A stretch of 64,000 bases of DNA from Eledone cirrhosa (Eukaryota). Within the stretch, counting starts at the first letter, position 1; every line of letters starts with the position of its first letter. Both the position numbers and the translations under genes were made by a program. Below the pieces are notes generated by a model, which was not told where the DNA came from, ran no database searches, and worked only from the letters and a program-made list of their open reading frames with translations. Shown here piece after piece: positions 40-63,675 of the stretch. Location of the stretch: positions 65,348,001 through 65,412,000 of the forward strand of contig OZ024744.1 of assembly GCA_964016885.1 (NCBI GenBank), in the 5' to 3' direction.

Positions 40-1190
40 AGGAAAAGAAGGTTCACAAGAAAGTAAGAAAGCAGGATGAAGAAGTCAAGAAGTTGTGTGA
101 GAAAGTAGCTCTTGAACGTTCGTCATCCAGCTCAGCTATTATTAATGATGATGATGATGATGAAATCTTCAAGTCAGCACCACCCCAAAAGTCATTGTGA
201 ATAAAGTCTACTCTCAACACCACTCTTGTTGCCACGTAGGAACAGGAGAAACTACCTGTACAACAAGCAAGTTGTTCTTACATTGCAGATTTGAAGAGTT
301 TTGGCCACAGTGTGTCTGAACTCTCAGTTTCAGTTTCCTCCCTCAACTGTTTATCGAACAAGAACCAATCACTGTAAGAGGATGGCTCATGAAATTGAGT
401 TATCCACTTTCCCACTTGAAGACAGATTCTGGTTAGACCTCCACTGGGATGGAGAATTGTTACCATCGGCTTCCTTATCCAGCTCACTCAATGATTGGAT
501 TGCAGTTTTAGTTAGAGGAAAAGGAAAGGAAGAGCTCTTAGGTGTTCTGATTACAAGAGATGGAACCAGACAACAAATTGCGGAAGTTGTTTTGAAGGAA
601 ATTCAATGACTCAAAATTGAGATAGAATAATTGGTATGTCCTTTGACACGACCACCAGTAACACTAGCAATCATCGTGGAGCCAATACAAACATTGAAGC
701 AGCTCTGAAAAAATTCCCCGTGTGCTGGCTTGCCTCCATCACATTCTTGAACTACTTTTGAAGAAAGTCTTTGAGATCGTTTCCCCGTCATCTCATCCCG
801 GTATCCCATTGTTCAAAAAGTTCCAGGAACAATGGGACTCCATTATAAGTCTCATTAGTAATACACTGGGTAATTGCTGGCCTTGTGCCTAACGTAGAAA
901 CAATTATCAAACTATCCTGGACAATGATAAACCCATGGCAAATTTTTATGTACTGCTTTATGGAGATCATCTCTGAAAAAACTATGTCAAGTTTGTAAAG
1001 CTCTCCTTTCTCTATCTTGGTGGTTGGCTATCTCCTCAGTTCTCCTCAGTCCCAGGAGCTTACCACTAGGCTTGTTGGATGGCTAAGGCCATCTATGTGT
1101 TCAAGATAGTTTTGTTCGAAGAACAACTCAAGTTTACAACACATATGTCAAGAGATCTACAAAAAGTGATTTCTGGTTATAAATTTCATT
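40..1190 (+). pseudogene. Decayed DNA transposase fragment, hAT superfamily (hATm-like)
   Basis: Frameshifted and stop-interrupted motifs LHWDGELLP, KEELLGV, GMSFDTTTSNT, HHILELL and PGAYH.ACWMAKAIYVFKIVLF. Subfamily assignment is from memory. Confidence 0.65.
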
Positions 1191-14579: not shown

Positions 14580-14642
14580 TTACACACACACACACACACA
14601 TATAATATATATATATATATATATACATACATATATATATAT

Positions 14643-14687
<45 letters not shown>

Positions 14688-14698
14688 TATATACATAT

Positions 14699-14731
<33 letters not shown>

Positions 14732-14905
14732 CATACATATATATATATATACATACATATATATATACATATATATATATATATACATACATATATATAT
14801 ATACACACATATATATATATATATATACATACATATATATATATATACATACATATGTATGTATATATATATATACATATATATATATATACATACATAT
14901 ATATG

Positions 14906-14937
<32 letters not shown>

Positions 14938-15238
14938 CATACATATATACACACACATATATATATATATATACATATACATACAAATACATATATATAC
15001 ATATATATATATATACATACAAATACATATATATACATATATATATATATACATATATATACATATACATACATATACATATATATACATATATATACAT
15101 ATACATACATATACATATATATACATATACATACATATATATATATATACATATATATACATATACATACATATATATATATATACATATATATACATAT
15201 ACATACATATATATATATATATATATACATATACATAC

Positions 15239-15273
<35 letters not shown>

Positions 15274-15286
15274 CATATATATATAC

Positions 15287-15323
<37 letters not shown>

Positions 15324-15944
15324 CATATATATATACATATATATATATATATACATATATATATACATATATATATATACATATATATACATATACATAC
15401 ATATACATATATATACATATACATATATATACACATATATATACATATATATACATATATATATACATATGTATATATATATATGTATATATATATATGT
15501 ATATATATATATGTATATATATGTATATATATATATATGTATATATATATATGTATATATATGTATATATATATATATGTATATATATATATACATCTAT
15601 ATATATATACATATATATAAATATACATATATATACATATACACATATATACATATACATATATATACATATATACATATATACATATATATACATATAT
15701 ACATATACACATATATATATATACACATATATATATATACATATATATACATATATATATATATACACATATATATATATACACATATATATATATACAC
15801 ATATATATATATACACATATATATATATACACATATATATATATATACATATATATATATACACATATATATATATACACATATATATATATACACATAT
15901 ATATATATATACATATATATATATACACATATATATATATACAC

Positions 15945-15977
<33 letters not shown>

Positions 15978-16008
15978 CACATATATATATATACATATAT
16001 ATATATGC

Positions 16009-16039
<31 letters not shown>

Positions 16040-16060
16040 CATATACATATATATATATGC

Positions 16061-16091
<31 letters not shown>

Positions 16092-16214
16092 CATATATAT
16101 ACATATATATACATATATATACATATATATACATATATATACATATATATATACATATATACATATATATATATATACATATATATATATACATATATAT
16201 ATATACACATATAC

Positions 16215-16245
<31 letters not shown>

Positions 16246-16670
16246 CATATATATATATACATATATATATATACATATATATATACATATATATATATAT
16301 ACATATATATACACACATATATATATATATACATATATATACACACATATATATATATATACATATATATATATACATATATATACACATATATATATAT
16401 ACATATATATATATATACATATATATACACATATATATATACATACATATATATATATACATATATATATACATATATATATACATACATATATATATAT
16501 ACATATATATATACATACATATATATATATATACATATATATATACATACATATATATATATATACATATATATATACATACATATATATATATATACAT
16601 ATATATATACATATATATATACATATACATATACATATACATATATATATACATATACATATATATATAC

Positions 16671-16702
<32 letters not shown>

Positions 16703-17011
16703 ATATATACATACTACACCTGATGTACCCCTTCCATACACATGCGTATCATGACTCGTGCACTGTTCATTTTCCTGATGTTTGTGCATTGCCCTATGTA
16801 CTGTACATGCACTTTTTTGATGAGTTGTGGTGCACCTGGGCACTGTACACAATATTTCATTATTGTTATCATTATTATATCATGACTCATACACTGTTCA
16901 TTTTCCTGACATTTGTACATTATTCTATGTACTATACATGCACCTTTGATGAGTTGTAGTGCACCTGAGCACTGTACACAATAATTTCATTATTATTATT
17001 ATTATACATAC

Positions 17012-17042
<31 letters not shown>

Positions 17043-17243
17043 CAAATATATATATATATACAAATATATATATATAAACAAATATATATATATATACAAA
17101 TATATATATATATATAAATATATATATATATACAAATATATATATATATACAAATATATATATATATACAAATATATATATATATATACAAATATATATA
17201 TATATACAAATATATATATATATATACAAATATATATATATAT

Positions 17244-17280
<37 letters not shown>

Positions 17281-17968
17281 CACATATATATATATATATA
17301 CATATACACATATATATATATATATACATATACACATATATATATATATACATATACACATATATATATATACATATACACATATATATATATACATATA
17401 CACATATATATATATATATATATACATACATATATATATATACATATACATACATATATATATATACATATACATACATATATATATATACATATACACA
17501 TATATATACATATACACATATATATATATATACATACATATATATATATATATACATACATATATATATATATACATACATATATATATACATATACACA
17601 TATATATATATATACATATACACATATATATATATACACATATATATATATATATACATACATATATATATACATATACACATATATATATACATATACA
17701 CATATATATATATATACATATACACATATATATATATACATACATATATATATATACATATACACATATATATATATATACATATACACATATATATATA
17801 TACATACATATATATATATACATATACACATATATATATATATACATATACACATATATATATATACATACATATATATATATATATACATATACACATA
17901 TATATATATACATACATATATATATATATATACACATATATATATATATATACATATACATACATACA

Positions 17969-18009
<41 letters not shown>

Positions 18010-18105
18010 ACATACATATATATATATACATACATACATATATATACATACATACATACATATATATACATACATACATACATACATATACATACATATA
18101 TATAC

Positions 18106-18190
<85 letters not shown>

Positions 18191-18243
18191 CGAATACATA
18201 TACATGTATACATATACACACACACACATATATACACATACAC
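14580..18243. repeat. Compound TA microsatellite with CA interruptions; island at 16713-17003
   Basis: Direct reading. Produces the YI-rich pseudo-ORFs. Confidence 0.97.
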
Positions 18244-20739: not shown

Positions 20740-22140
20740 CCCTTCAGGCTATAACAGAGGAGTTCAAGACCAGCTGCTCATGGGAACTCCTATATGCAGA
20801 TGATCTAACTCTCATAGCTGAATCTATGGCTGAACTAGGAAGCATGGCCTAGAATCAAAAGGCCTTAAGTTAACTTGTCTAAGACTAAAGTTCTAGTTTG
20901 TAGAAAGGAAAATAGGGCACAGGTGTCCTCAGGGAAATGGCCATGCTCAGTGTGTAGGAAAGGAGTAGGCAGAAATTCCATTTTATGTCCCAAATGCAAA
21001 GTATGGGTGCATAAAAGATGTAGTGGGATCACAGGTAAACTATCTAAGAACATAGACTTTATATGTGGCCGAAGCTCAGGTGCAATAGGAGGCAAATGTC
21101 CACAGGATACTAGCCCCTTAGTATTGCCAGATGGTTCTATAGAAATTAGTGGACACTTTCCATTACTGGGTGACGAAATCAGCAGTTGGTGGAGGGTGTT
21201 CTGAAAGTACAGTAGCCAGAGTCAAACAGGATGGGAAAAGTTCAGAGAGCTAATCCGCTGTTGGCCACAAACATTTTTCTCTCTAAAAATGAAAGGCAGA
21301 TTGTATGATGCCTGTATATGAACAGCAATGCTACATGGCAGTGGGACATGGGCATTACGTGCAGAGGACCTGCGCAGACTGGAAAGGAATGAAGCATGCA
21401 TGCTCCGTTGGATGTGTAATAATATATACATCTACATACATATACACACATATACGTGAACGGCAAAGCATAAATGAACTAAGTGAGAAATTAGGAATAA
21501 GAGGGATCAGATGCTGTTTACTTGAGAGAAGACTACGTTGGTATGGCCACGTGATATGCGCATGAAAGACGACAGCTGTATAAAAAAGTGCAGGGCGATC
21601 AAATTGATGGTAGTTACGGAGTAGGTAGACCCAGAAAAACCTGGGACGATCTGATAAATTCGGACCTTACACACTTGCACCTCTCTAAGACAATGTCACT
21701 GGACCGAGATCTTTGGCGCTACGCAGTAATACAGAAGACCCGCCTTGCCTATGTACAAAGCGAAACCTACATTCACTAGGCACCTCTTAACCAAATATAC
21801 ACTCCAATCCACTACCCCTACCCTATCCTCCCACCGCTCTCTGTAAAGTTGGTACCACAACATCCAGTCCAAATAAATGAGATGAGATCGAGATCGTGTA
21901 GCTGTCACGAGAAAAAACAGAGTCCACGCTGTAAAAACAGAGTCCACACGGTAAAAAGTTCCCAGTTCCACACTGTAAATGTGGTCGGTGTTAGGAAGGG
22001 CATCCAGCCGTAGAAAACCTGCCAGATAGTCCTATATGAGCGAGACACGGTCACCCGACCAACCTTGCCTCAAGTGGGACAAGTCCCGTCTAACCCATGC
22101 TAGCGTGGAAGAGAGACATTAAACGCTGATGATGATGATG
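20740..22140 (+). mobile_element. 5'-truncated, frameshifted RTE-type LINE with C-rich 3' UTR and (ATG)n tail
   Basis: RT motif ELLYADDL at ~20783, Cys/His knuckle WPCSVCRKGVGRNSILCPKCKVWVHKRCSG, ERRLRWYGHV and GRPRKTWD. Confidence 0.9.
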
Positions 22141-32573
<10,433 letters not shown>

Positions 32574-32932: not shown

Positions 32933-33094
32933 TTATAAAACCTGCTTGGTCAGCCAATCAGTTTCTTGCTCTGAATTATCAGTGGCCTGGTCCCTGTCCT
33001 CAACCAAACTGTGTCGGCTGGATCCAGGCGGACTGCTGATGCCGCTGCTATTGTTGGATCCAATGGATGATCTCCAGCATGGAATCCCAGAATC
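32933..33094 (-). CDS. CDC42BPA: MRCK terminal coding exon: DSGIPCWRSSIGSNNSSGISSPPGSSRHSLVEDRDQATDNSEQETDWLTKQVL*
   Basis: Acceptor tttctattttgcag, phase 0, ends in TAA. Resembles the MRCK tail DSDSPRHSTASNSSNLSSPPSP. Confidence 0.88.
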   Translation of the reverse strand, partial: DSGIPCWRSSIGSNNSSGISSPPGSSRHSLVEDRDQATDNSEQETDWLTKQVL

Positions 33095-40451: not shown

Positions 40452-40600
40452 CTCAAATGATTTATATGCACTAATAGAATCTGAAGGATTTGTCTGCTCT
40501 TGGGAAGAATTGGAATTGCTTTCTACAAGTGATACTGATGTAATGGAAGACAAAGGTCTGGATGTGCTTTGCTGCCAACCTCGATTTCTCACACCAGTTC
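40452..40600 (-). CDS. CDC42BPA: MRCK C-terminal tail exon: TGVRNRGWQQSTSRPLSSITSVSLVESNSNSSQEQTNPSDSISAYKSFE
   Basis: Acceptor ctattgtag, donor gtaagt, 149 nt, phase 1->0. Ser-rich like MRCK tails. Confidence 0.85.
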
Positions 40601-42151: not shown

Positions 42152-42302
42152 CATTATAGTGAGAATCTCCACTTGCACTACTGCTACTGGTGCTTGCCGT
42201 TGGCTTTCCACTGGCACCACACATCTGTTCTTGCAACTGCTTCATATTAGGTTGCATTAGATTGCGGACCTTTTGAATTTGTTCTTCAGACTTGGCACCA
42301 GG
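42152..42302 (-). CDS. CDC42BPA: MRCK C-terminal tail exon: PGAKSEEQIQKVRNLMQPNMKQLQEQMCGASGKPTASTSSSSASGDSHYN(G)
   Basis: Acceptor tctactttcag, donor gtaaat, 151 nt, phase 0->1. Open frame whose phases exactly bridge the neighbouring exons. Confidence 0.85.
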
Positions 42303-42966: not shown

Positions 42967-43081
42967 TTGTCTTGCTCCAGTAGGCAGACCTATCAATGCT
43001 TGCATGCCTTGATCTGGGCCCAGATGTGCAATGTGACTGAAGTTGATTGGTAATGAAATAATACGGGATCTTCTCTCCATC
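42967..43081 (-). CDS. CDC42BPA: MRCK canonical CRIB exon (CRIB-B): MERRSRIISLPINFSHIAHLGPDQGMQALIGLPTGARQ
   Basis: Acceptor ttcttctttccag, donor gtaatt, 115 nt, phase 2->0. Resembles MRCK [27 protein letters not shown]. Confidence 0.92.
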
Positions 43082-43342
43082 CTGGAAAGAAGAACTGGAT
43101 ATGAGATTCTGATTCTCTTTCTTACACACACAAACACAAGCTAATTTACCTCAGTTACTATTAATTAATGTTACACTATTAGATGGCATTAGGTGGTTAA
43201 TATTAGATGTTCTGTTAGAATTTGTAAATGTGAAGCAATGTCTTTGTTATGACAGGAAACATTTTTTTATACTACTAAATAGAGACAACTTTTAGTGAGA
43301 ATGCTATGCATGGATGAATTTATTTTCTTCCTCTGTACACAT

Positions 43343-43372
<30 letters not shown>

Positions 43373-43376
<4 letters not shown>

Positions 43377-43547
43377 GTATAACACTGGAGGGTATATCCG
43401 TAGTAGTAGAGCACTCAGTCCATGAACGAGTTTGGTAGCAGTAGTTCCACAACAGTTAGTTCACCATACCGAGAATAAACCTTTGAAGATCCGCATAAGG
43501 TGAAACAATTGTTCTCGGTATGCTGAACTAACTGTTGAGGAACTACT
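43373..43547. mobile_element. TA-flanked insert with a 36-bp inverted repeat and degenerate hammerhead core; probable Penelope-like element remnant
   Basis: Arms at 43440-43475 and 43512-43547 (2 mismatches). Loop reads TTGAAGA..GAAACAATTGTT. Confidence 0.55.
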
Positions 43548-44099
43548 ATATATATATATATAATCATCATTTAGCGTCTATTTTCCACGCTACCATGGGT
43601 TATATATCATCATCATTTTACATCTGCTTTTCCCTGCTTGCAAAGGTGGGATGGGTCTTATTCAGCACAGCATCTCTCCACTTGTCATATATATATATAT
43701 ATATTAGTTCTGTATGAGCAAGACAACAGGACAACTTGTCTGACACATGTTAGCATGGAAAAAATGTAAAATGATGATGATTATATATATATATATTCAT
43801 ACACACACATACACACATTATTCAAGAGTTGTGAGGTCCAATTTTCTGCAGGTATTTCTGGCCACTTCTATCTTTAAGAGTCTAAGAGTGTATTGCTCAA
43901 TTTTATAAACTACTACTTAATAATTGACTGTTATTACTTACATTTTCTATGTGTTTGGGACGCTCATATTTTTAAATTTCAAACTCTCCTAGCACTTCGT
44001 AAATCAGTTTTTATATATATGAAATTGACAGCCGTAACAATGAATACTTAATACCAGAATAGAGTTTAAATATATTTTATGTCTAACCACAATAAGTTA

Positions 44100-45530
44100 C
44101 TTAGGCGATTAACTTGGCAGTGGAGGAGAATGCACTGAGAGTGTGTTACCCAGAATCAGAATAGGCTGGAAGAAGTTTAGAGACTTGATGCCTCAGCTGA
44201 CAACAAAAGGCTTCTCTCTCAGAGCCAAGGGTAGACTATATGATGCCTGTATGTGAATTGCAATGGCAGTGGAACATGGGCCTTAACCACAGAAGATCTG
44301 CAGAGACTAGAGAGAAATGAAGTGAGTGTGCTCCAAATGGTGTGTAATGTTATTGTGTGTTAATGACATAGCATTAGTGAACTGAGAGGAAAACTTAGCG
44401 TAAGCGGAATTGGATGTAAAGTGCAAAGGGGAAGACTGCACTGGTATGGACATGTGATGCATATGGAGGATAGCAACTGCATAAAAAAATGCAGAGCAAT
44501 CCTAATGGCTGGGACCCTAGAAAAAGGTAGACCCAGAAAGACATGGGATGAAGTAGAAACTAAGCCTTACAACTGAGATGACAAAGGTTCAAGAAAGCTG
44601 GCGCTATGCTGTGATGATGAAGACCTAGCCAGAAGCATATAATATAACCTGACCCATCCATGAACCCCTCCCCTTCCTCCCACTAACACCCACCACCATC
44701 TATCCTCCCCACTACACCTGGCACCCATGTCCCTTCCAGAACCAGCCCATAACTAACCCCCTCTAAAGACTTACATATCCCCACCATTGTCACAGCTACT
44801 CTACTCCTTCACATGCCACTACCACCCATTACCCCCTCACTATCCCCATACCTATCTATATAAAGCACATCCCCTATGCCACTAAATACCCTCACCTCAC
44901 ACACTAATCAGTTACCCCTATCCCTTACCACCTATCTCTCCATCATGCCCCCACCTCTACTATATTGACCAGATCCCTCACACCACTACATCTCCATACA
45001 TTAATCTACCACCCCTACCCTTTACTCATTGCCCTGCCAAATCACCAGACATTAATAACTTCATACCTATCTCCCTCTCCAGAGCTAAGAGGGCTCTATT
45101 GTTGGGTTTAAGACCAACAGCCTCTCTAGTGATGATACCATGAAAATGCACCTGTTACACTCCATAAGGGAGGTTGGTAACAGGAGGATGCCCTGCTGTA
45201 GAGACCATGCCTAAAAGAGTTGAAAGAACCCTTTAGTTGTGTCAGAAACACAACCTCTCTATATTGTCTTATTGATAATATCCCTAGTGCTGGTGATCTA
45301 CACTAAAGCACCCAGTACACGCTGTAAAGTGGTTGGTGTTAGGAAGAACATCCAGCTGTAGAAAGCTTGTCAAACAGAGTTGAAAGGACCCTTTCGTTTG
45401 TGTCAAAAGACAACTTCACCCCTGCACACGATATGACCATATGTAAGTGGGATACAGGCCCCTTGGCCTGTCTGGGAGGTCAGTGGCCCTGCTTCAATAC
45501 TGGCTTGGTCTATGTAAACCCATCTAACCG
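44100..45530 (+). mobile_element. Degenerate RTE-type LINE 3' part with C-rich UTR and tail
   Basis: Homologous to 21170-21750 (aggctggaagaagtttagaga, tggtatggacatgtgatgc, ggtagacccagaaagacatggga). Confidence 0.85.
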
Positions 45531-46382
45531 GCTTGTTATATTTCTAATGAAAGACACTGCATATAATTTTCAAATAATTTTTTTAATAAACAATTTGGAA
45601 GGATTTAGTAAAATAAGAAACTTATTATAAAGCAGGTGTTTGGTATAGAATATAAGGTTCTTACATAAGATTATAGTGGTAAATTTTTAGATTGATATAA
45701 ACAGTTTAAAATAAACTGTTTTATATCATGAATTATGGGTGGTTTCAAACAGGTTGGTATAAAAAGGTTTAAGAAATAATTATCTTTCTTGTTCTTAGCA
45801 CAAGATCAGTTTAATATCAGCGCTAAATATCATTCAGTAAAATTAAAGTTTTGCTGATTTGAAATTTTATTGATATATTTTCTAATTAAGGCCATCATTA
45901 ACTGCCAAATTGTAAATAAAATCTTTATATGTATAAAAAGAAAGATATTTAATTATAAATCTTTACAATTTAGAATTTAGAATAAAAAAAAAAAAAGGGG
46001 GATTAGAAAAAAATACCAAAACATGCAAATGGTTATTAAATTATGAAAATGAATGTAAAACAAAAAAGATGTTAAAGATAATTTGTTGTGCGAAATAATA
46101 AAGTGGAAGCATGAGGAAGCTAGAGGAGAGAGAAAAAAGGCTGGAATTTACATAAAAAATAAAATAAAATAAAATAAAATAAAATTAATAAAAAGGAGCA
46201 TGCTGTCTAGAAATGAGAAAAAGAGAGGTGCAAAAGAAAACTTATAATAGACGAAATAAAACTAAAGCTTGACTGAATAGCAGCAGAGCCCACCAATATA
46301 ATAGTAATAATAAAGTATAATAAATTATAAAAACAAATTTTGCTTTTAAGATTTACTTGCAGCTGAGAGTAACTATGCTTAC

Positions 46383-46481
46383 AGATTGGCTACTGCAGGA
46401 TTGGCTACCTGGTCGGGACGCATATGAGCAACATGGCTGAATGAAAAGGGTGCTGAAATGTCACGTGAACGTCGTTCGCTC
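46383..46481 (-). CDS. CDC42BPA: MRCK extra CRIB exon (CRIB-A): SERRSRDISAPFSFSHVAHMRPDQVANPAVAN
   Basis: Acceptor ttcaaccag after a long CT tract, donor gtaagc, 99 nt, symmetric phase 2->2. Intact CRIB consensus I-S-x-P-x-x-F-x-H-x-x-H. Confidence 0.8.
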
Positions 46482-46520
46482 CTGGTTGAATTAAAGTTAT
46501 TGATAGAGAGAGAGGGATAG

Positions 46521-46562
<42 letters not shown>

Positions 46563-46891
46563 AAGAGAGGGGGAGAAAAAATAAACAAAAGTATTATTTA
46601 GAAAGATGCATGTTAAACAAATGTCTTTATAGTGTCAATTCTGTTGGGCATTTTCATTAAACTCAGATGTAATAATATCTTGAAGGTGGAATTAGTTACA
46701 AAACAGCCATAGTTAAACAAAGTGGCACTTTAGGTTTCAGTTATCTCAATGATAATATTTTTTAAAATATAGTGGAAACTTAACAGATCAACTAGTGGAA
46801 AAGTTTCAAATGTACAAAAAAAAAAAGAAAAAACATTTAATGTAAACATCAGTGAAATATTTCATTTTGTTTTATACTAAATGATATCATT

Positions 46892-50322: not shown

Positions 50323-53300
50323 TAGGGAGGAATGGGGACGAATGGGAAGAGAGAAGGTGGTTGTAGGGAGGAATGGAAGAGAGAAGGTGGTTGTAGGGAG
50401 GAATGGAAGAGAGGTGGTGGTTGTAGGGAGGAATGGAAGAGAGAAGGTGGTTGTAGGGAGGAATGGAAGAGAGAAGGTGGTTGTAGGGAGGAATGGAAGA
50501 GAGAAGGTGGTTGTAGGGAGGAATGGAAGAGAGGTGGTGGTGGTAGGGAGGAATGGAAGAGAGGTGGTGGTGGTAGGGAGGAATGGAAGAGAGGTGGTGG
50601 TTGTAAGGAGGAATGGAAGAGAGAAGGTGGTTGTAGGGAGGAATGGAAGAGAGAAGGTGGTTGTAGGGAGGAATGGAAGAGAGAAGGTGGTTGTAGGGAG
50701 GAATGGAAGAGAGAAGGTGGTTGTAGGGAGGAATGGAAGAGAGGTGGTGGTGGTAGGGAGGAATGGAAGAGAGGTGGTGGTGGTAGGGAGGAATGGAAGA
50801 GAGGTGGTGGTGGTAGGGAGGAATGGAAGAGAGGTGGTGGTGGTAGGGAGGAATGGAAGAGAGAAGGTGGTTGTAGGGAGGAATGGAAGAGAGGTGGTGG
50901 TTGTAGGGAGGAATGGAAGAGAGGTGGTGGTTGTAGGGAGGAATGGAAGAGAGGTGGTGGTAAGGAGGAATGGAAGAGAGAAGGTGGTTGTAAGGAGGAA
51001 TGGAAGAGAGAAGGTGGTTGTAGGGAGGAATGGAAGAGAGAAGGTGGTTGTAGGGAGGAATGGAAGAGAGGTGGTTGTAGGGAGGAATGGAAGAGAGGTG
51101 GTGGTGGTAGGGAGGAATGGAAGAGAGAAGGTGGTTGTAGGGAGGAATGGAAGAGAGAAGGTGGTTGTAGGGAGGAATGGAAGAGAGAAGGTGGTTGTAG
51201 GGAGGAATGGAAGAGAGAAGGTGGTGGTAGGGAGGAATGGAAGAGAGAAGGTGGTGGTAGGGAGGAATGGAAGAGAGAAGGTGGTGGTAGGGAGGAATGG
51301 AAGAGAGAAGGTGGTTGTAGGGAGGAATGGAAGAGAGGTGGTGGTTGTAGGGAGGAATGGAAGAGAGAAGGTGGTTGTAGGGAGGAATGGAAGAGAGGTG
51401 GTGGTGGTAAGGAGGAATGGAAGAGAGGTGGTGATTGTAGGGAGGAATGGAAGAGAGGTGGTGGTAAGGAGGAATGGAAGAGAGAAGGTGGTTGTAGGGA
51501 GGAATGGAAGAGAGAAGGTGGTGGTAAGGAGGAATGGAAGGGAGAAGGTGGTTGTAGGGAGGAATGGAAGAGAGAAGGTGGTGGTAAGGAGGAATGAAAG
51601 AGAGGTGGTGATTGTAGGGAGGAATGGAAGAGAGAAGGTGGTGGTAGGGAGGAATGGAAGAGAGGTGGTGGTGGTAGGGAGGAATGGAAGAGAGAAGGTG
51701 GTGGTAAGGAGGAATGGAAGAGAGGTGGTGATTGTAGGGAGGAATGGAAGAGAGGTGGTGGTAAGGAGGAATGGAAGAGAGAAGGTGGTTGTAGGGAGGA
51801 ATGGAAGAGAGGTGGTGGTTGTAGGGAGGAATGGAAGAGAGAAGGTGGTTGTAGGGAGGAATGGAAGAGAGGTGGTGATTGTAGGGAGGAATGGAAGAGA
51901 GAAGGTGGTTGTAGGGAGGAATGGAAGAGAGAAGGTGGTTGTAGGGAGGAATGGAAGAGAGAAGGTGGTTGTAGGGAGGAATGGAAGAGAGGTGGTGGTT
52001 GTAGGGAGGAATGGAAGAGAGAAGGTGGTTGTAGGGAGGAATGGAAGAGAGGTGGTGGTGGTAGGGAGGAATGGAAGAGAGGTGGTGGTTGTAGGGAGGA
52101 ATGGAAGAGAGAAGGTGGTTGTAGGGAGGAATGGAAGAGAGGTGGTGGTTGTAGGGAGGAATGGAAGAGAGGTGGTGATTGTAGGGAGGAATGGAAGAGA
52201 GAAGGTGGTTGTAGGGAGGAATGGAAGAGAGGTGGTGGTTGTAGGGAGGAATGGAAGAGAGGTGGTGGTAAGGAGGAATGGAAGAGAGAAGGTGGTTGTA
52301 GGGAGGAATGGAAGAGAGGTGGTGGTGGTAGGGAGGAATGGAAGAGAGGTGGTGGTTGTAGGGAGGAATGGAAGAGAGAAGGTGGTTGTAGGGAGGAATG
52401 GAAGAGAGGTGGTGGTTGTAGGGAGGAATGGAAGAGAGGTGGTGATTGTAGGGAGGAATGGAAGAGAGAAGGTGGTTGTAGGGAGGAATGGAAGAGAGGT
52501 GGTGGTGGTAGGGAGGAATGGAAGAGAGGTGGTGGTTGTAGGGAGGAATGGAAGAGAGGTGGTGGTTGTAGGGAGGAATGGAAGAGAGGTGGTGGTTGTA
52601 GGGAGGAATGGAAGAGAGAAGGTGGTTGTAGGGAGGAATGGAAGAGAGGTGGTGGTTGTAGGGAGGAATGGAAGAGAGAAGGTGGTTGTAGGGAGGAATG
52701 GAAGAGAGAAGGTGGTTGTAGGGAGGAATGGAAGAGAGAAGGTGGTTGTAGGGAGGAATGGAAGAGAGGTGGTGGTTGTAGGGAGGAATGGAAGAGAGAA
52801 GGTGGTTGTAGGGAGGAATGGAAGAGAGGTGGTGGTGGTAGGGAGGAATGGAAGAGAGGTGGTGGTTGTAGGGAGGAATGGAAGAGAGAAGGTGGTTGTA
52901 GGGAGGAATGGAAGAGAGGTGGTGGTTGTAGGGAGGAATGGAAGAGAGAAGGTGGTTGTAGGGAGGAATGGAAGAGAGAAGGTGGTTGTAGGGAGGAATG
53001 GAAGAGAGAAGGTGGTTGTAGGGAGGAATGGAAGAGAGGTGGTGGTTGTAGGGAGGAATGGAAGAGAGGTGGTGGTGGTAGGGAGGAATGGAAGAGAGGT
53101 GGTGGTTGTAGGGAGGAATGGAAGAGAGGTGGTGGTGGTAGGGAGGAATGGAAGAGAGGTGGTGGTTGTAGGGAGGAATGGAAGAGAGAAGGTGGTTGTA
53201 GGGAGGAATGGAAGAGAGGTGGTGGTTGTAGGGAGGAATGGAAGAGAGGTGGTGGTTGTAGGGAGGAATGGAAGAGAGAAGGTGGTTGTAGGGAGGAATG

Positions 53301-56300
53301 GAAGAGAGGTGGTGGTTGTAGGGAGGAATGGAAGAGAGGTGGTGGTAAGGAGGAATGGAAGAGAGAAGGTGGTTGTAAGGAGGAATGGAAGAGAGAAGGT
53401 GGTTGTAGGGAGGAATGGAAGAGAGAAGGTGGTGGTAGGGAGGAATGGAAGAGAGGTGGTGGTGGTAGGGAGGAATGGAAGAGAGGTGGTGGTGGTAGGG
53501 AGGAATGGAAGAGAGGTGGTGGTTGTAGGGAGGAATGGAAGAGAGGTGGTGGTGGTAGGGAGGAATGGAAGAGAGGTGGTGGTTGTAGGGAGGAATGGAA
53601 GAGAGAAGGTGGTTGTAGGGAGGAATGGAAGAGAGGTGGTGGTTGTAGGGAGGAATGGAAGAGAGGTGGTGGTTGTAGGGAGGAATGGAAGAGAGAAGGT
53701 GGTTGTAGGGAGGAATGGAAGAGAGAAGGTGGTTGTAGGGAGGAATGGAAGAGAGAAGGTGGTTGTAGGGAGGAATGGAAGAGAGGTGGTGGTTGTAGGG
53801 AGGAATGGAAGAGAGGTGGTGGTGGTAGGGAGGAATGGAAGAGAGGTGGTGGTTGTAGGGAGGAATGGAAGAGAGGTGGTGGTGGTAGGGAGGAATGGAA
53901 GAGAGGTGGTGGTTGTAGGGAGGAATGGAAGAGAGAAGGTGGTTGTAGGGAGGAATGGAAGAGAGGTGGTGGTGGTAGGGAGGAATGGAAGAGAGAAGGT
54001 GGTTGTAGGGAGGAATGGAAGAGAGAAGGTGGTTGTAGGGAGGAATGGAAGAGAGGTGGTGGTTGTAGGGAGGAATGGAAGAGAGGTGGTGGTTGTAGGG
54101 AGGAATGGAAGAGAGGTGGTGGTGGTAGGGAGGAATGGAAGAGAGAAGGTGGTTGTAGGGAGGAATGGAAGAGAGAAGGTGGTGGTAGGGAGGAATGGAA
54201 GAGAGGTGGTGGTTGTAGGGAGGAATGGAAGAGAGGTGGTGGTTGTAGGGAGGAATGGAAGAGAGGTGGTGGTGGTAGGGAGGAATGGAAGAGAGGTGGT
54301 GGTTGTAGGGAGGAATGGAAGAGAGGTGGTGGTGGTAGGGAGGAATGGAAGAGAGGTGGTGGTTGTAGGGAGGAATGGAAGAGAGAAGGTGGTTGTAGGG
54401 AGGAATGGAAGAGAGGTGGTGGTGGTAGGGAGGAATGGAAGAGAGAAGGTGGTTGTAGGGAGGAATGGAAGAGAGAAGGTGGTTGTAGGGAGGAATGGAA
54501 GAGAGGTGGTGGTTGTAGGGAGGAATGGAAGAGAGGTGGTGGTTGTAGGGAGGAATGGAAGAGAGGTGGTGGTGGTAGGGAGGAATGGAAGAGAGAAGGT
54601 GGTTGTAGGGAGGAATGGAAGAGAGAAGGTGGTGGTAGGGAGGAATGGAAGAGAGGTGGTGGTTGTAGGGAGGAATGGAAGAGAGGTGGTGGTTGTAGGG
54701 AGGAATGGAAGAGAGGTGGTGGTGGTAGGGAGGAATGGAAGAGAGGTGGTGGTTGTAGGGAGGAATGGAAGAGAGGTGGTGGTGGTAGGGAGGAATGGAA
54801 GAGAGGTGGTGGTGGTAGGGAGGAATGGAAGAGAGAAGGTGGTTGTAGGGAGGAATGGAAGAGAGAAGGTGGTTGTAGGGAGGAATGGAAGAGAGGTGGT
54901 GGTAAGGAGGAATGGAAGAGAGGTGGTGGTTGTAGGGAGGAATGGAAGAGAGGTGGTGGTTGTAGGGAGGAATGGAAGAGAGAAGGTGGTTGTAGGGAGG
55001 AATGGAAGAGAGGTGGTGGTTGTAGGGAGGAATGGAAGAGAGGTGGTGGTTGTAGGGAGGAATGGAAGAGAGGTGGTGGTGGTAGGGAGGAATGGAAGAG
55101 AGGTGGTGGTTGTAGGGAGGAATGGAAGAGAGGTGGTGGTGGTAGGGAGGAATGGAAGAGAGGTGGTGGTTGTAGGGAGGAATGGAAGAGAGGTGGTGGT
55201 GGTAGGGAGGAATGGAAGAGAGAAGGTGGTTGTAGGGAGGAATGGAAGAGAGAAGGTGGTTGTAGGGAGGAATGGAAGAGAGACAGTGATGGTTGTAGGG
55301 AGGAATGGAAGAGAGACAGTGATGGTTGTAGGGAGGAATGGAAGAGAGGTGGTGGTTGTAGGGAGGAATGGAAGAGAGAAGGTGGTTGTAGGGAGGAATG
55401 GAAGAGAGGTGGTGGTGGTAGGGAGGAATGGAAGAGAGGTGGTGGTGGTAGGGAGGAATGGAAGAGAGAAGGTGGTTGTAGGGAGGAATGGAACAGAGGT
55501 GGTGGTTGTAGGGAGGAATGGAAGAGAGGTGGTGGTTGTAGGGAGGAATGGAAGAGAGAAGGTGGTTGTAGGGAGGAATGGAAGAGAGGTGGTGGTGGTA
55601 GGGAGGAATGGAAGAGAGGTGGTGGTTGTAGGGAGGAATGGAAGAGAGGTGGTGGTTGTAGGGAGGAATGGAAGAGAGAAGGTGGTTGTAGGGAGGAATG
55701 GAAGAGAGAAGGTGGTTGTAGGGAGGAATGGAAGAGAGACAGTGATGGTTGTAGGGAGGAATGGAAGAGAGACAGTGGTGGTTTTAGGGAGGAATGGAAG
55801 AGAGACAGTGATGGTTGTAGGGAGGAATGGAAGAGAGACAGTGGTGGTTGTAGGGAGGAATGGAAGAGAGGTGGTGGTTGTAGGGAGGAATGGAAGAGAG
55901 GTGGTGGTTGTAGGGAGGAATGGAAGAGAGAAGGTGGTTGTAGGGAGGAATGGAAGAGAGGTGGTGGTTGTAGGGAGGAATGGAAGAGAGGTGGTGGTTG
56001 TAGGGAGGAATGGAAGAGAGAAGGTGGTTGTAGGGAGGAATGGAAGAGAGGTGGTGGTTGTAGGGAGGAATGGAAGAGAGGTGGTGGTTGTAGGGAGGAA
56101 TGGAAGAGAGAAGGTGGTTGTAGGGAGGAATGGAAGAGAGAAGGTGGTTGTAGGGAGGAATGGAAGAGAGGTGGTGGTTGTAGGGAGGAATGGAAGAGAG
56201 GTGGTGGTTGTAGGGAGGAATGGAAGAGAGACAGTGATGGTTGTAGGGAGGAATGGAAGAGAGGTGGTGGTTGTAGGGAGGAATGGAAGAGAGACAGTGA

Positions 56301-56428
56301 TGGTTGTAGGGAGGAATGGAAGAGAGGTGGTGGTTGTAGGGAGGAATGGAAGAGAGACAGTGGTGGTTGTAGGGAGGAATGGAAGAGAGACAGTGATGGT
56401 TGTAGGGAGGAATGGAAGAGAGACAGTA
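50323..56428. repeat. 30-bp purine-rich minisatellite, about 200 units (GTAGGGAGGAATGGAAGAGA[GAA/GGT]GGTGG[T/TG]..)
   Basis: Direct reading, with 27- and 33-bp variant units. Confidence 0.98.
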
Positions 56429-58397: not shown

Positions 58398-58503
58398 CCT
58401 TTAGATCCTCTGTCATCATCCCTGGTTTTGAAAGAATAACGTCGCTTTGTACGGCTGGCTTGCCGGAACGTTGTCAGATCTGGAAGAACAGCTTGCTCTT
58501 CAC
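58398..58503 (-). CDS. CDC42BPA: MRCK exon (CNH-CRIB linker): (S)EEQAVLPDLTTFRQASRTKRRYSFKTRDDDRGSK(G)
   Basis: Acceptor ttctgttttag, donor gtgag, 106 nt, phase 1->2. Contains the MRCK hallmark KRRYSF. Confidence 0.92.
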
Positions 58504-59635: not shown

Positions 59636-59723
59636 TAATCTCTGTGTTCTTCAGATAGACAATGTGTTGTGAATCTAGATTACTGAACAAATTCAAGGAG
59701 CCATCTTTGCAAATTGGTTTGGT
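59636..59723 (-). CDS. CDC42BPA: MRCK exon (end of CNH domain): TKPICKDGSLNLFSNLDSQHIVYLKNTEI
   Basis: Acceptor atatttcag, donor gtaagt, 88 nt, phase 0->1. Resembles MRCK VRPLNNEGSLNLLGLETIRLIYFKN. Confidence 0.92.
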
Positions 59724-60858: not shown

Positions 60859-60956
60859 TTTTCTCAGACAAATTGTTTGAATCCAAGCAGTGTTTCTCAC
60901 ATCGTATACAAATATTGAGTTTTCAGCATAACATAATAGATATGGGTGGTTGATGG
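60859..60956 (-). CDS. CDC42BPA: MRCK exon (CNH domain): (T)INHPYLLCYAENSIFVYDVRNTAWIQTICLRK
   Basis: Acceptor attattacag, donor gtaagt, 98 nt, phase 1->0. Resembles MRCK PYLSVYSENAVDIFDVNSMEWIQTLPLKK. Confidence 0.92.
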
Positions 60957-63594: not shown

Positions 63595-63675
63595 TGATAG
63601 ATTGTGGATGTGATGGCCACATAAGTTCTTGGCATCTACTTCTTTTTCCACTGTGATCAACATAAACACCCAATG
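63595..63675 (-). CDS. CDC42BPA: MRCK/CDC42BP kinase internal exon (CNH domain): (x)LGVYVDHSGKRSRCQELMWPSHPQSI; the gene continues beyond the window end
   Basis: Acceptor ctcttctttcag, donor gtaagt, 81 nt, phase 1->1. Matches the remembered MRCK CNH motif GIYTDCQGRRSRQQELMWP. The symbol denotes the family (MRCK/gek); paralog assignment is not meaningful here. Confidence 0.9.

Follow-up and report, generated by a model that had tools for sequence, protein, structure and literature searches.

MRCK kinases are recruited by Cdc42 rather than activated by it (PMC3940853; PMC8489921; PMC8412110), and reviews list Rac1 as a further GTPase that they bind (PMC3940853; PMC8489921). The CRIB motif has the consensus I-S-x-P-x(2-4)-F-x-H-x-x-H-V-G, followed by a C-terminal extension, and its core is described as tolerating a change at one or two positions and as necessary for tight binding, for which it does not suffice by itself (PMC8847673). 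In C. elegans, the MRCK CRIB is reported to bind weakly, and avidity in the dimer is proposed to make up for this (bioRxiv 10.1101/2022.03.11.483953).

The order kinase, coiled coil, C1, PH, CNH and CRIB of the single-CRIB proteins (MRCK, Gek and MRCK-1) is presumably also that of the gene described here. The annotated MRCK isoforms of molluscs and brachiopods additionally share with it an extra CRIB exon, the place of that exon and its missing extension, and the inclusion or skipping seen in them would apply here too. Jawed-vertebrate MRCK-alpha (CDC42BPA) also has a second CRIB, encoded by an optional exon that, as here, preserves the frame and has a core and no extension. Variants of human MRCK-alpha in the GTPase-binding region were reportedly described by Tan et al. 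in 2003.

The window, that is, the whole 64,000-nt stretch of DNA that was analysed (G000:C28:65348001-65412000), belongs to the 3.0-Gb genome of Eledone cirrhosa. The C-terminal end of MRCK can be read there from nine minus-strand exons, each with AG and GT at its borders. These exons and the features around exon A are:

63595..63675, minus strand: CNH-domain exon (exon model and comparison with MRCK)
60859..60956, minus strand: CNH-domain exon with the end of Pfam CNH (Pfam CNH and exon model)
59636..59723, minus strand: CNH C-terminal exon (exon model)
58398..58503, minus strand: upstream exon, basic segment after CNH; ends in phase 2, its donor being common to A and B
46503..46580, minus strand: TC-rich tract ending ~20 nt before the exon A acceptor, candidate splicing-regulator site
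46383..46481, minus strand: cassette exon A (99 nt, phase 2-2), encoding a CRIB core that lacks the C-terminal extension and, after it, a short linker
46384..46408, minus strand: 10-nt direct repeat (copies 46408-46399 and 46393-46384), which creates the context of an "internal donor" in exon A
42967..43081, minus strand: exon B, canonical MRCK CRIB and extension, 115 nt, phase 2-0; in every complete record examined
42152..42302, minus strand: first tail exon after CRIB-B (exon model)
40452..40600, minus strand: second tail exon (exon model)
32933..33094, minus strand: last coding exon, up to the stop codon (exon model)

The gene is identified as MRCK by CNH exons in and beside the window and by kinase-domain exons on the same strand, 100-125 kb beyond its upstream end. 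The latter are eight minus-strand exons (G000:C28:65512171-65536751) encoding an N-terminal kinase domain of the DMPK family; they are 67-94% identical to O. bimaculoides P0009 and are linked to the exons of the window by position and strand, not by a transcript. All ten matches of an O. bimaculoides CNH-CRIB fragment (P0012) in this genome fall inside the MRCK locus. The CNH domain is followed by the CRIB, as in MRCK and Gek, and C1 and PH domains ahead of CNH are seen in the O. vulgaris orthologue. The closest named protein is Octopus vulgaris MRCK, with a per-exon identity of 57-94%.

Half of the 11.9-kb intron directly upstream of exon A is occupied by a 30-bp purine-rich minisatellite (50335-56422, ~203 copies, 93% matches). 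Degenerate AT microsatellite fields lie downstream of the MRCK stop codon, at 22143-31817 (9.7 kb) and 14598-18240 (3.6 kb). Broken reading frames at 20869-21776 (plus strand), the first piece with a PHD-type zinc finger, and similar pieces near 44113-44573 are taken by us to be LINE retrotransposon remnants. Fragmented frames at 164-900 (plus strand) presumably resemble a DNA-transposon protein; the piece at 295-606 has no Pfam match. The TC-rich tract at 46503-46580 is a possible splicing-regulator site, although such microsatellites are common in the window.

The two CRIB exons agree in coordinates, frames and peptides with the original prediction, which had described them as paralogues with phase-2 acceptors. 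Exon A is bounded by tcaaccag|G and CT|gtaagc and exon B by ctttccag|G and CAA|gtaatt, with an intron of 3301 nt between them. The CRIB-core pattern occurs twice in the six frames of the window, compared with no occurrence in 100 first-order Markov simulations of it. Exons A and B share 45 of 73 aligned bases. The same residue is encoded by 16 of 24 codons, 11 of these 16 by different codons, which bears out the predicted retention of residues despite synonymous divergence. Exon A has the properties of a cassette: it is bounded by AG and GT, its length is a multiple of three, and the frame stays open to the same stop with it (349 residues) or without it (316 residues). Its inclusion puts a second CRIB core 33 residues ahead of the canonical CRIB.

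The isoforms of relatives agree with this anatomy. For their sorting, 158 lophotrochozoan MRCK records were hand-picked from 346 collected proteins; fragments ending before the end of CNH or starting after it (P0008, P0009, P0013, P0014, P0275, P0276, P0323-P0325, P0332), vertebrate proteins, and representatives without a species name other than P0105 and P0116 were set aside. Both CRIBs are present in 111 records and only B in 44, while two do not contain the region and one ends just after A. The B-only count includes P0105 (43 + 1), which our script had labelled A and which has a B-type motif by sequence. Many of these records duplicate one another between databases and most are computational gene models, which makes the count by group the better measure. 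Exon A occurs in 26 of 30 groups; each of the remaining four has a single record. Of the 17 groups represented by several records, 16 show both include and skip forms. O. vulgaris, oysters, Mytilus, Mercenaria, Haliotis, Babylonia, Littorina, Physella, Aplysia, the chiton Liolophura and the brachiopod Lingula all have both forms. In O. vulgaris, CAI9734871.1 and CAI9734872.1 include A and CAI9734870.1 skips it; the corresponding include and skip forms are XP_078315965.1 and XP_078315967.1 in Crassostrea virginica, XP_064603051.1 and XP_064603052.1 in Liolophura, and XP_013414269.1 and XP_013414273.1 in Lingula. All 10 include/skip pairs place the insert, 28-43 residues long, at one and the same junction, and in Aplysia the junction residue switches between Phe and Leu, as a phase-2 junction predicts.

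Both forms also occur in two Logan clusters that group with Octopus (SH-aLRT 100 in a quick full-length tree), on contigs of 4.1-6.7 kb with no introns in their ORFs. These contigs are probably spliced mRNA, because the whole MRCK frame lies on so short a contig. Two sequence runs (X1 and X2, from one sample of one study) gave contigs that span introns and repeats and behave as genomic. The prediction of a live, frame-preserving cassette is thus upheld by include and skip forms in relatives, the Logan clusters among them, and by analogy exon A is presumably spliced in Eledone as it is there. Further splice diversity at the A/B site was seen in the heterobranch snails Aplysia (P0089 and P0272 versus P0274) and Elysia (P0087), namely an optional segment of 6 residues immediately ahead of CRIB-A and, ahead of CRIB-B, an acceptor variant that differs by one residue.

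Exon A is already in the public annotation of many molluscs; it is neither a cephalopod invention nor a lineage novelty. The novelty first attributed to the two-CRIB kinase is lost by the standard that the original prediction itself had set, since such isoforms are annotated across molluscs and in Lingula. The database records of the molluscan isoforms bear isoform numbers only, and a search of the open-access literature, with subscription journals mostly outside its scope, yielded no description of a second CRIB in a molluscan MRCK.

At the level of the motif, the two exons are not equivalent. CRIB-B has seven of eight core residues exact (Leu for Val), possesses the extension and reaches 24.2 bits with Pfam PBD, above the cut-off of 21.3 bits. 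CRIB-A has six of eight (Met for Val and Arg for Gly) and reaches 13.7 bits, below the cut-off; the cephalopod CRIB-A keeps all six residues of the I-S-P-F-H-H frame. The extension, a point overlooked by the original prediction, is missing from CRIB-A in 26 of the 26 groups that have A. Across molluscs, A and B also differ at fixed positions, with an acidic residue before Ile and Ser/Thr for Asn before Phe. The linker after the A core is one codon shorter here than in O. vulgaris and O. bimaculoides, which have a different sequence at this place. The sole CRIB in proteins of the C. elegans MRCK-1 type corresponds to CRIB-B with its extension. CRIB-B also aligns through core and extension with the CRIB (PBD) structures of PAK1 and PAK4 (5upk, 2ov2, 1e0a, 1ees; best E 0.0014), whose aligned chains carry Gly at the second position past the second His. 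The PAK extension has no counterpart in CRIB-A. None of the eight structure matches to CRIB-B was an MRCK CRIB chain.

The Arg at the usual Gly position of CRIB-A is encoded by CGT (46420-46418). In 104 distinct CRIB strings from the collected proteins, the position two past the second His holds Gly 86 times, Thr 15 times, Arg twice and Glu once; all Thr strings are vertebrate second CRIBs and both Arg strings are cephalopod A. Gly is also found at this position in the three other pattern-matching CRIB loci of this genome, and the non-cephalopod CRIB-A keeps it, whereas the cephalopod CRIB-A has Arg. In this sample, which does not contain Nautilus, the Gly-to-Arg change is specific to cephalopods and to CRIB-A. 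The substitution from which a changed affinity or specificity had been predicted is thus real, and among the 104 distinct strings it is confined to the cephalopod CRIB-A; it would weaken or retune the accessory site without abolishing function. Return of the Arg to Gly by A-to-I editing was considered and rejected, as the codon CGT has no A.

In vertebrates, a search among 51 candidates gave 24 amphibian-type, three ray/skate and one Polypterus proteins. Two CRIBs are present in 11 of the 24 frog and toad MRCK-alpha records, one in 12 and none in one, and an optional second CRIB is also found in the MRCK-alpha of the three rays/skates and of Polypterus. With these two-CRIB records in frogs, rays and Polypterus, the premise of a single CRIB in known MRCK proteins fails for jawed-vertebrate MRCK-alpha. 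Four frog models (P0290, P0292, P0293, P0295) end right after the CRIB or contain no CRIB. No mammalian two-CRIB MRCK record was retrieved, the single pig record having one CRIB; a single CRIB was also seen in one Ixodes, two Saccoglossus and three Patiria records, a sampling that, with the pig, is too thin to prove other isoforms absent.

As in the cephalopod A, the Gly is lost in the vertebrate second CRIB, where Thr replaces it. The latter is encoded by an exon of ~62 residues downstream of the constitutive CRIB, whereas A lies upstream, and the two cores are 35% identical. The opposite positions and this low identity suggest two independent duplications, so that the vertebrate and the molluscan/brachiopod extra CRIBs are likely to be separate in origin, although few outgroups were sampled. 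A wider scenario adds to these two gains, upstream in molluscs/brachiopods and downstream in jawed-vertebrate MRCK-alpha, a loss of Gly in vertebrates and cephalopods that was frozen by selection, and sees in them a convergent splice switch in which GTPase recruits the kinase, or in how many do; taken as a whole, this scenario is doubtful. Three divergent MRCK-like proteins (P0125, P0133, P0137) contain, 58-71 residues past their first CRIB, a further motif that is CRIB-like and degenerate and has no second His-Gly; they possibly represent a third independent doubling.

In a tree of only 23 columns, the molluscan A cores form one split (UFBoot 96). The A cores of Lingula and of P0116 have the same position in the protein and fall outside this split; the vertebrate second CRIBs form one group, and the placement of this group, of Lingula A and of P0116 A is not settled by so short an alignment. 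On the basis of the molluscan split, the A duplication is older than the chiton-conchiferan split and probably older than the mollusc-brachiopod split, a depth of over about 530 Myr. P0116 and P0255 are JGI records of an MRCK whose tandem CRIBs are separated by 33 residues, close neither to the named molluscs nor to Lingula, and may extend the duplication to another phylum.

Selection on A is argued from protein identity and from the codon differences between A and B. The A core is identical at 23 of 23 residues to O. bimaculoides P0012 and to the Logan clusters P0001 and P0002, and at 22 of 23 to O. vulgaris P0011. In comparison, the B core matches the Logan clusters at 20 of 23 positions and the neighbouring exons match at 16/28 to 27/34, so that the A core is the more conserved. 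Its near-total conservation among cephalopods takes in non-consensus positions, and across the four cephalopod lineages compared Arg is fixed.

We consider it somewhat probable (roughly 0.55) that exon A is an ancient MRCK cassette, included or skipped in relatives, which adds a core-only CRIB likely to act as a weak accessory site for Cdc42/Rac. All functional steps for CRIB-A are predictions from its sequence. With A included, an MRCK dimer would have four GTPase-binding cores instead of two, and the extra cores would provide avidity and a stronger or longer membrane recruitment, rather than a catalytic switch. A WASP sensor relocated better once its CRIB was doubled, and for other sensors the use of several domains succeeded only in part; the tandem WASP-CRIB was also pre-localised at the membrane, which the authors ascribe possibly to lipid binding (PMC10234108). 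The effect of an extra CRIB may be small, because deletion of the CRIB of C. elegans MRCK-1 is reported to give a mild phenotype in one tissue (PMC11634028). Among the Ras-family loci of this genome, no uninterrupted Cdc42 or Rac was found in the 12 translated of 41 matches. Two tandem genes, L016 and L017 (G000:C14:30219382-30226865), lie ~7 kb apart and are, as we take it from sequence features, RhoA-like.

A different use of the exon had also been predicted, in which an internal donor at 46409 makes A and B mutually exclusive, or the transcript ends with A as its alternative last exon; either would give kinases with A only. The sequence of the exon A region does contain the internal CAG|gtagcc as well as the read-through CTG TAA, and splicing from the short donor keeps the frame of the tail. 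However, in none of the 156 records with a CRIB region is A spliced to the tail unless B lies between them, and the 111 records with A and B contradict a mutually exclusive pattern. The GT of the internal donor is the Val codon after the core, and its context stems from the local 10-nt repeat, which is absent from O. vulgaris; the Q-V at this site is not kept in several other molluscs, which have Q-I, Q-L, Q-K or S-F. The O. bimaculoides model XP_014785818.1 (P0012, 454 aa) ends at the read-through stop, and frog MRCK-alpha models include tail-less forms. Such a stop is nevertheless expected by default, because the donor is a phase-2 GTAAG, and the O. bimaculoides model is N-terminally partial with its tail in a separate record (P0013), which suggests a fragmented annotation. 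A tail-less form ending past exon A is possible, if weakly supported, and A-only kinases in general are very improbable.

CRIB-A may also bind no GTPase at all, as it is below the Pfam cut-off, has lost the extension and, in cephalopods, the Gly. The cephalopod exon would then be kept as a spacer between CNH and CRIB-B, a basic membrane patch, or a phosphorylation or docking site, and it is the conservation of non-consensus positions, together with an Arg where 86 of 104 distinct motifs have Gly, that speaks for such a role. A spacer would have no need of the six I-S-P-F-H-H residues, all of which are kept, and known binders are described as tolerating one or two core changes (PMC8847673), so that we regard this explanation as unlikely. 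Alternatively, CRIB-A could prefer another GTPase than CRIB-B (Rac, RhoQ/J or RhoU), by which MRCK would answer a second GTPase or detect a coincidence. The fixed differences between A and B across molluscs fit this idea, as does the binding of Rac1 besides Cdc42 given in reviews (PMC3940853; PMC8489921), but GTPase specificity is attributed for the most part to the sequence that follows the core on its C-terminal side (PMC8847673), which A does not have; a distinct preference is thus rather unlikely.

The residual interest lies in the likely convergence with vertebrate MRCK-alpha, whose own optional exon lends itself to a comparison of binding, in the fixed cephalopod Arg and in an A exon without extension. 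It is at membranes marked by Cdc42 that MRCK brings about the activation of myosin II. Since exon A gives twice as many CRIBs when included and has remained optional in molluscs and a brachiopod, it would be a plausible tissue-specific dial of this recruitment.
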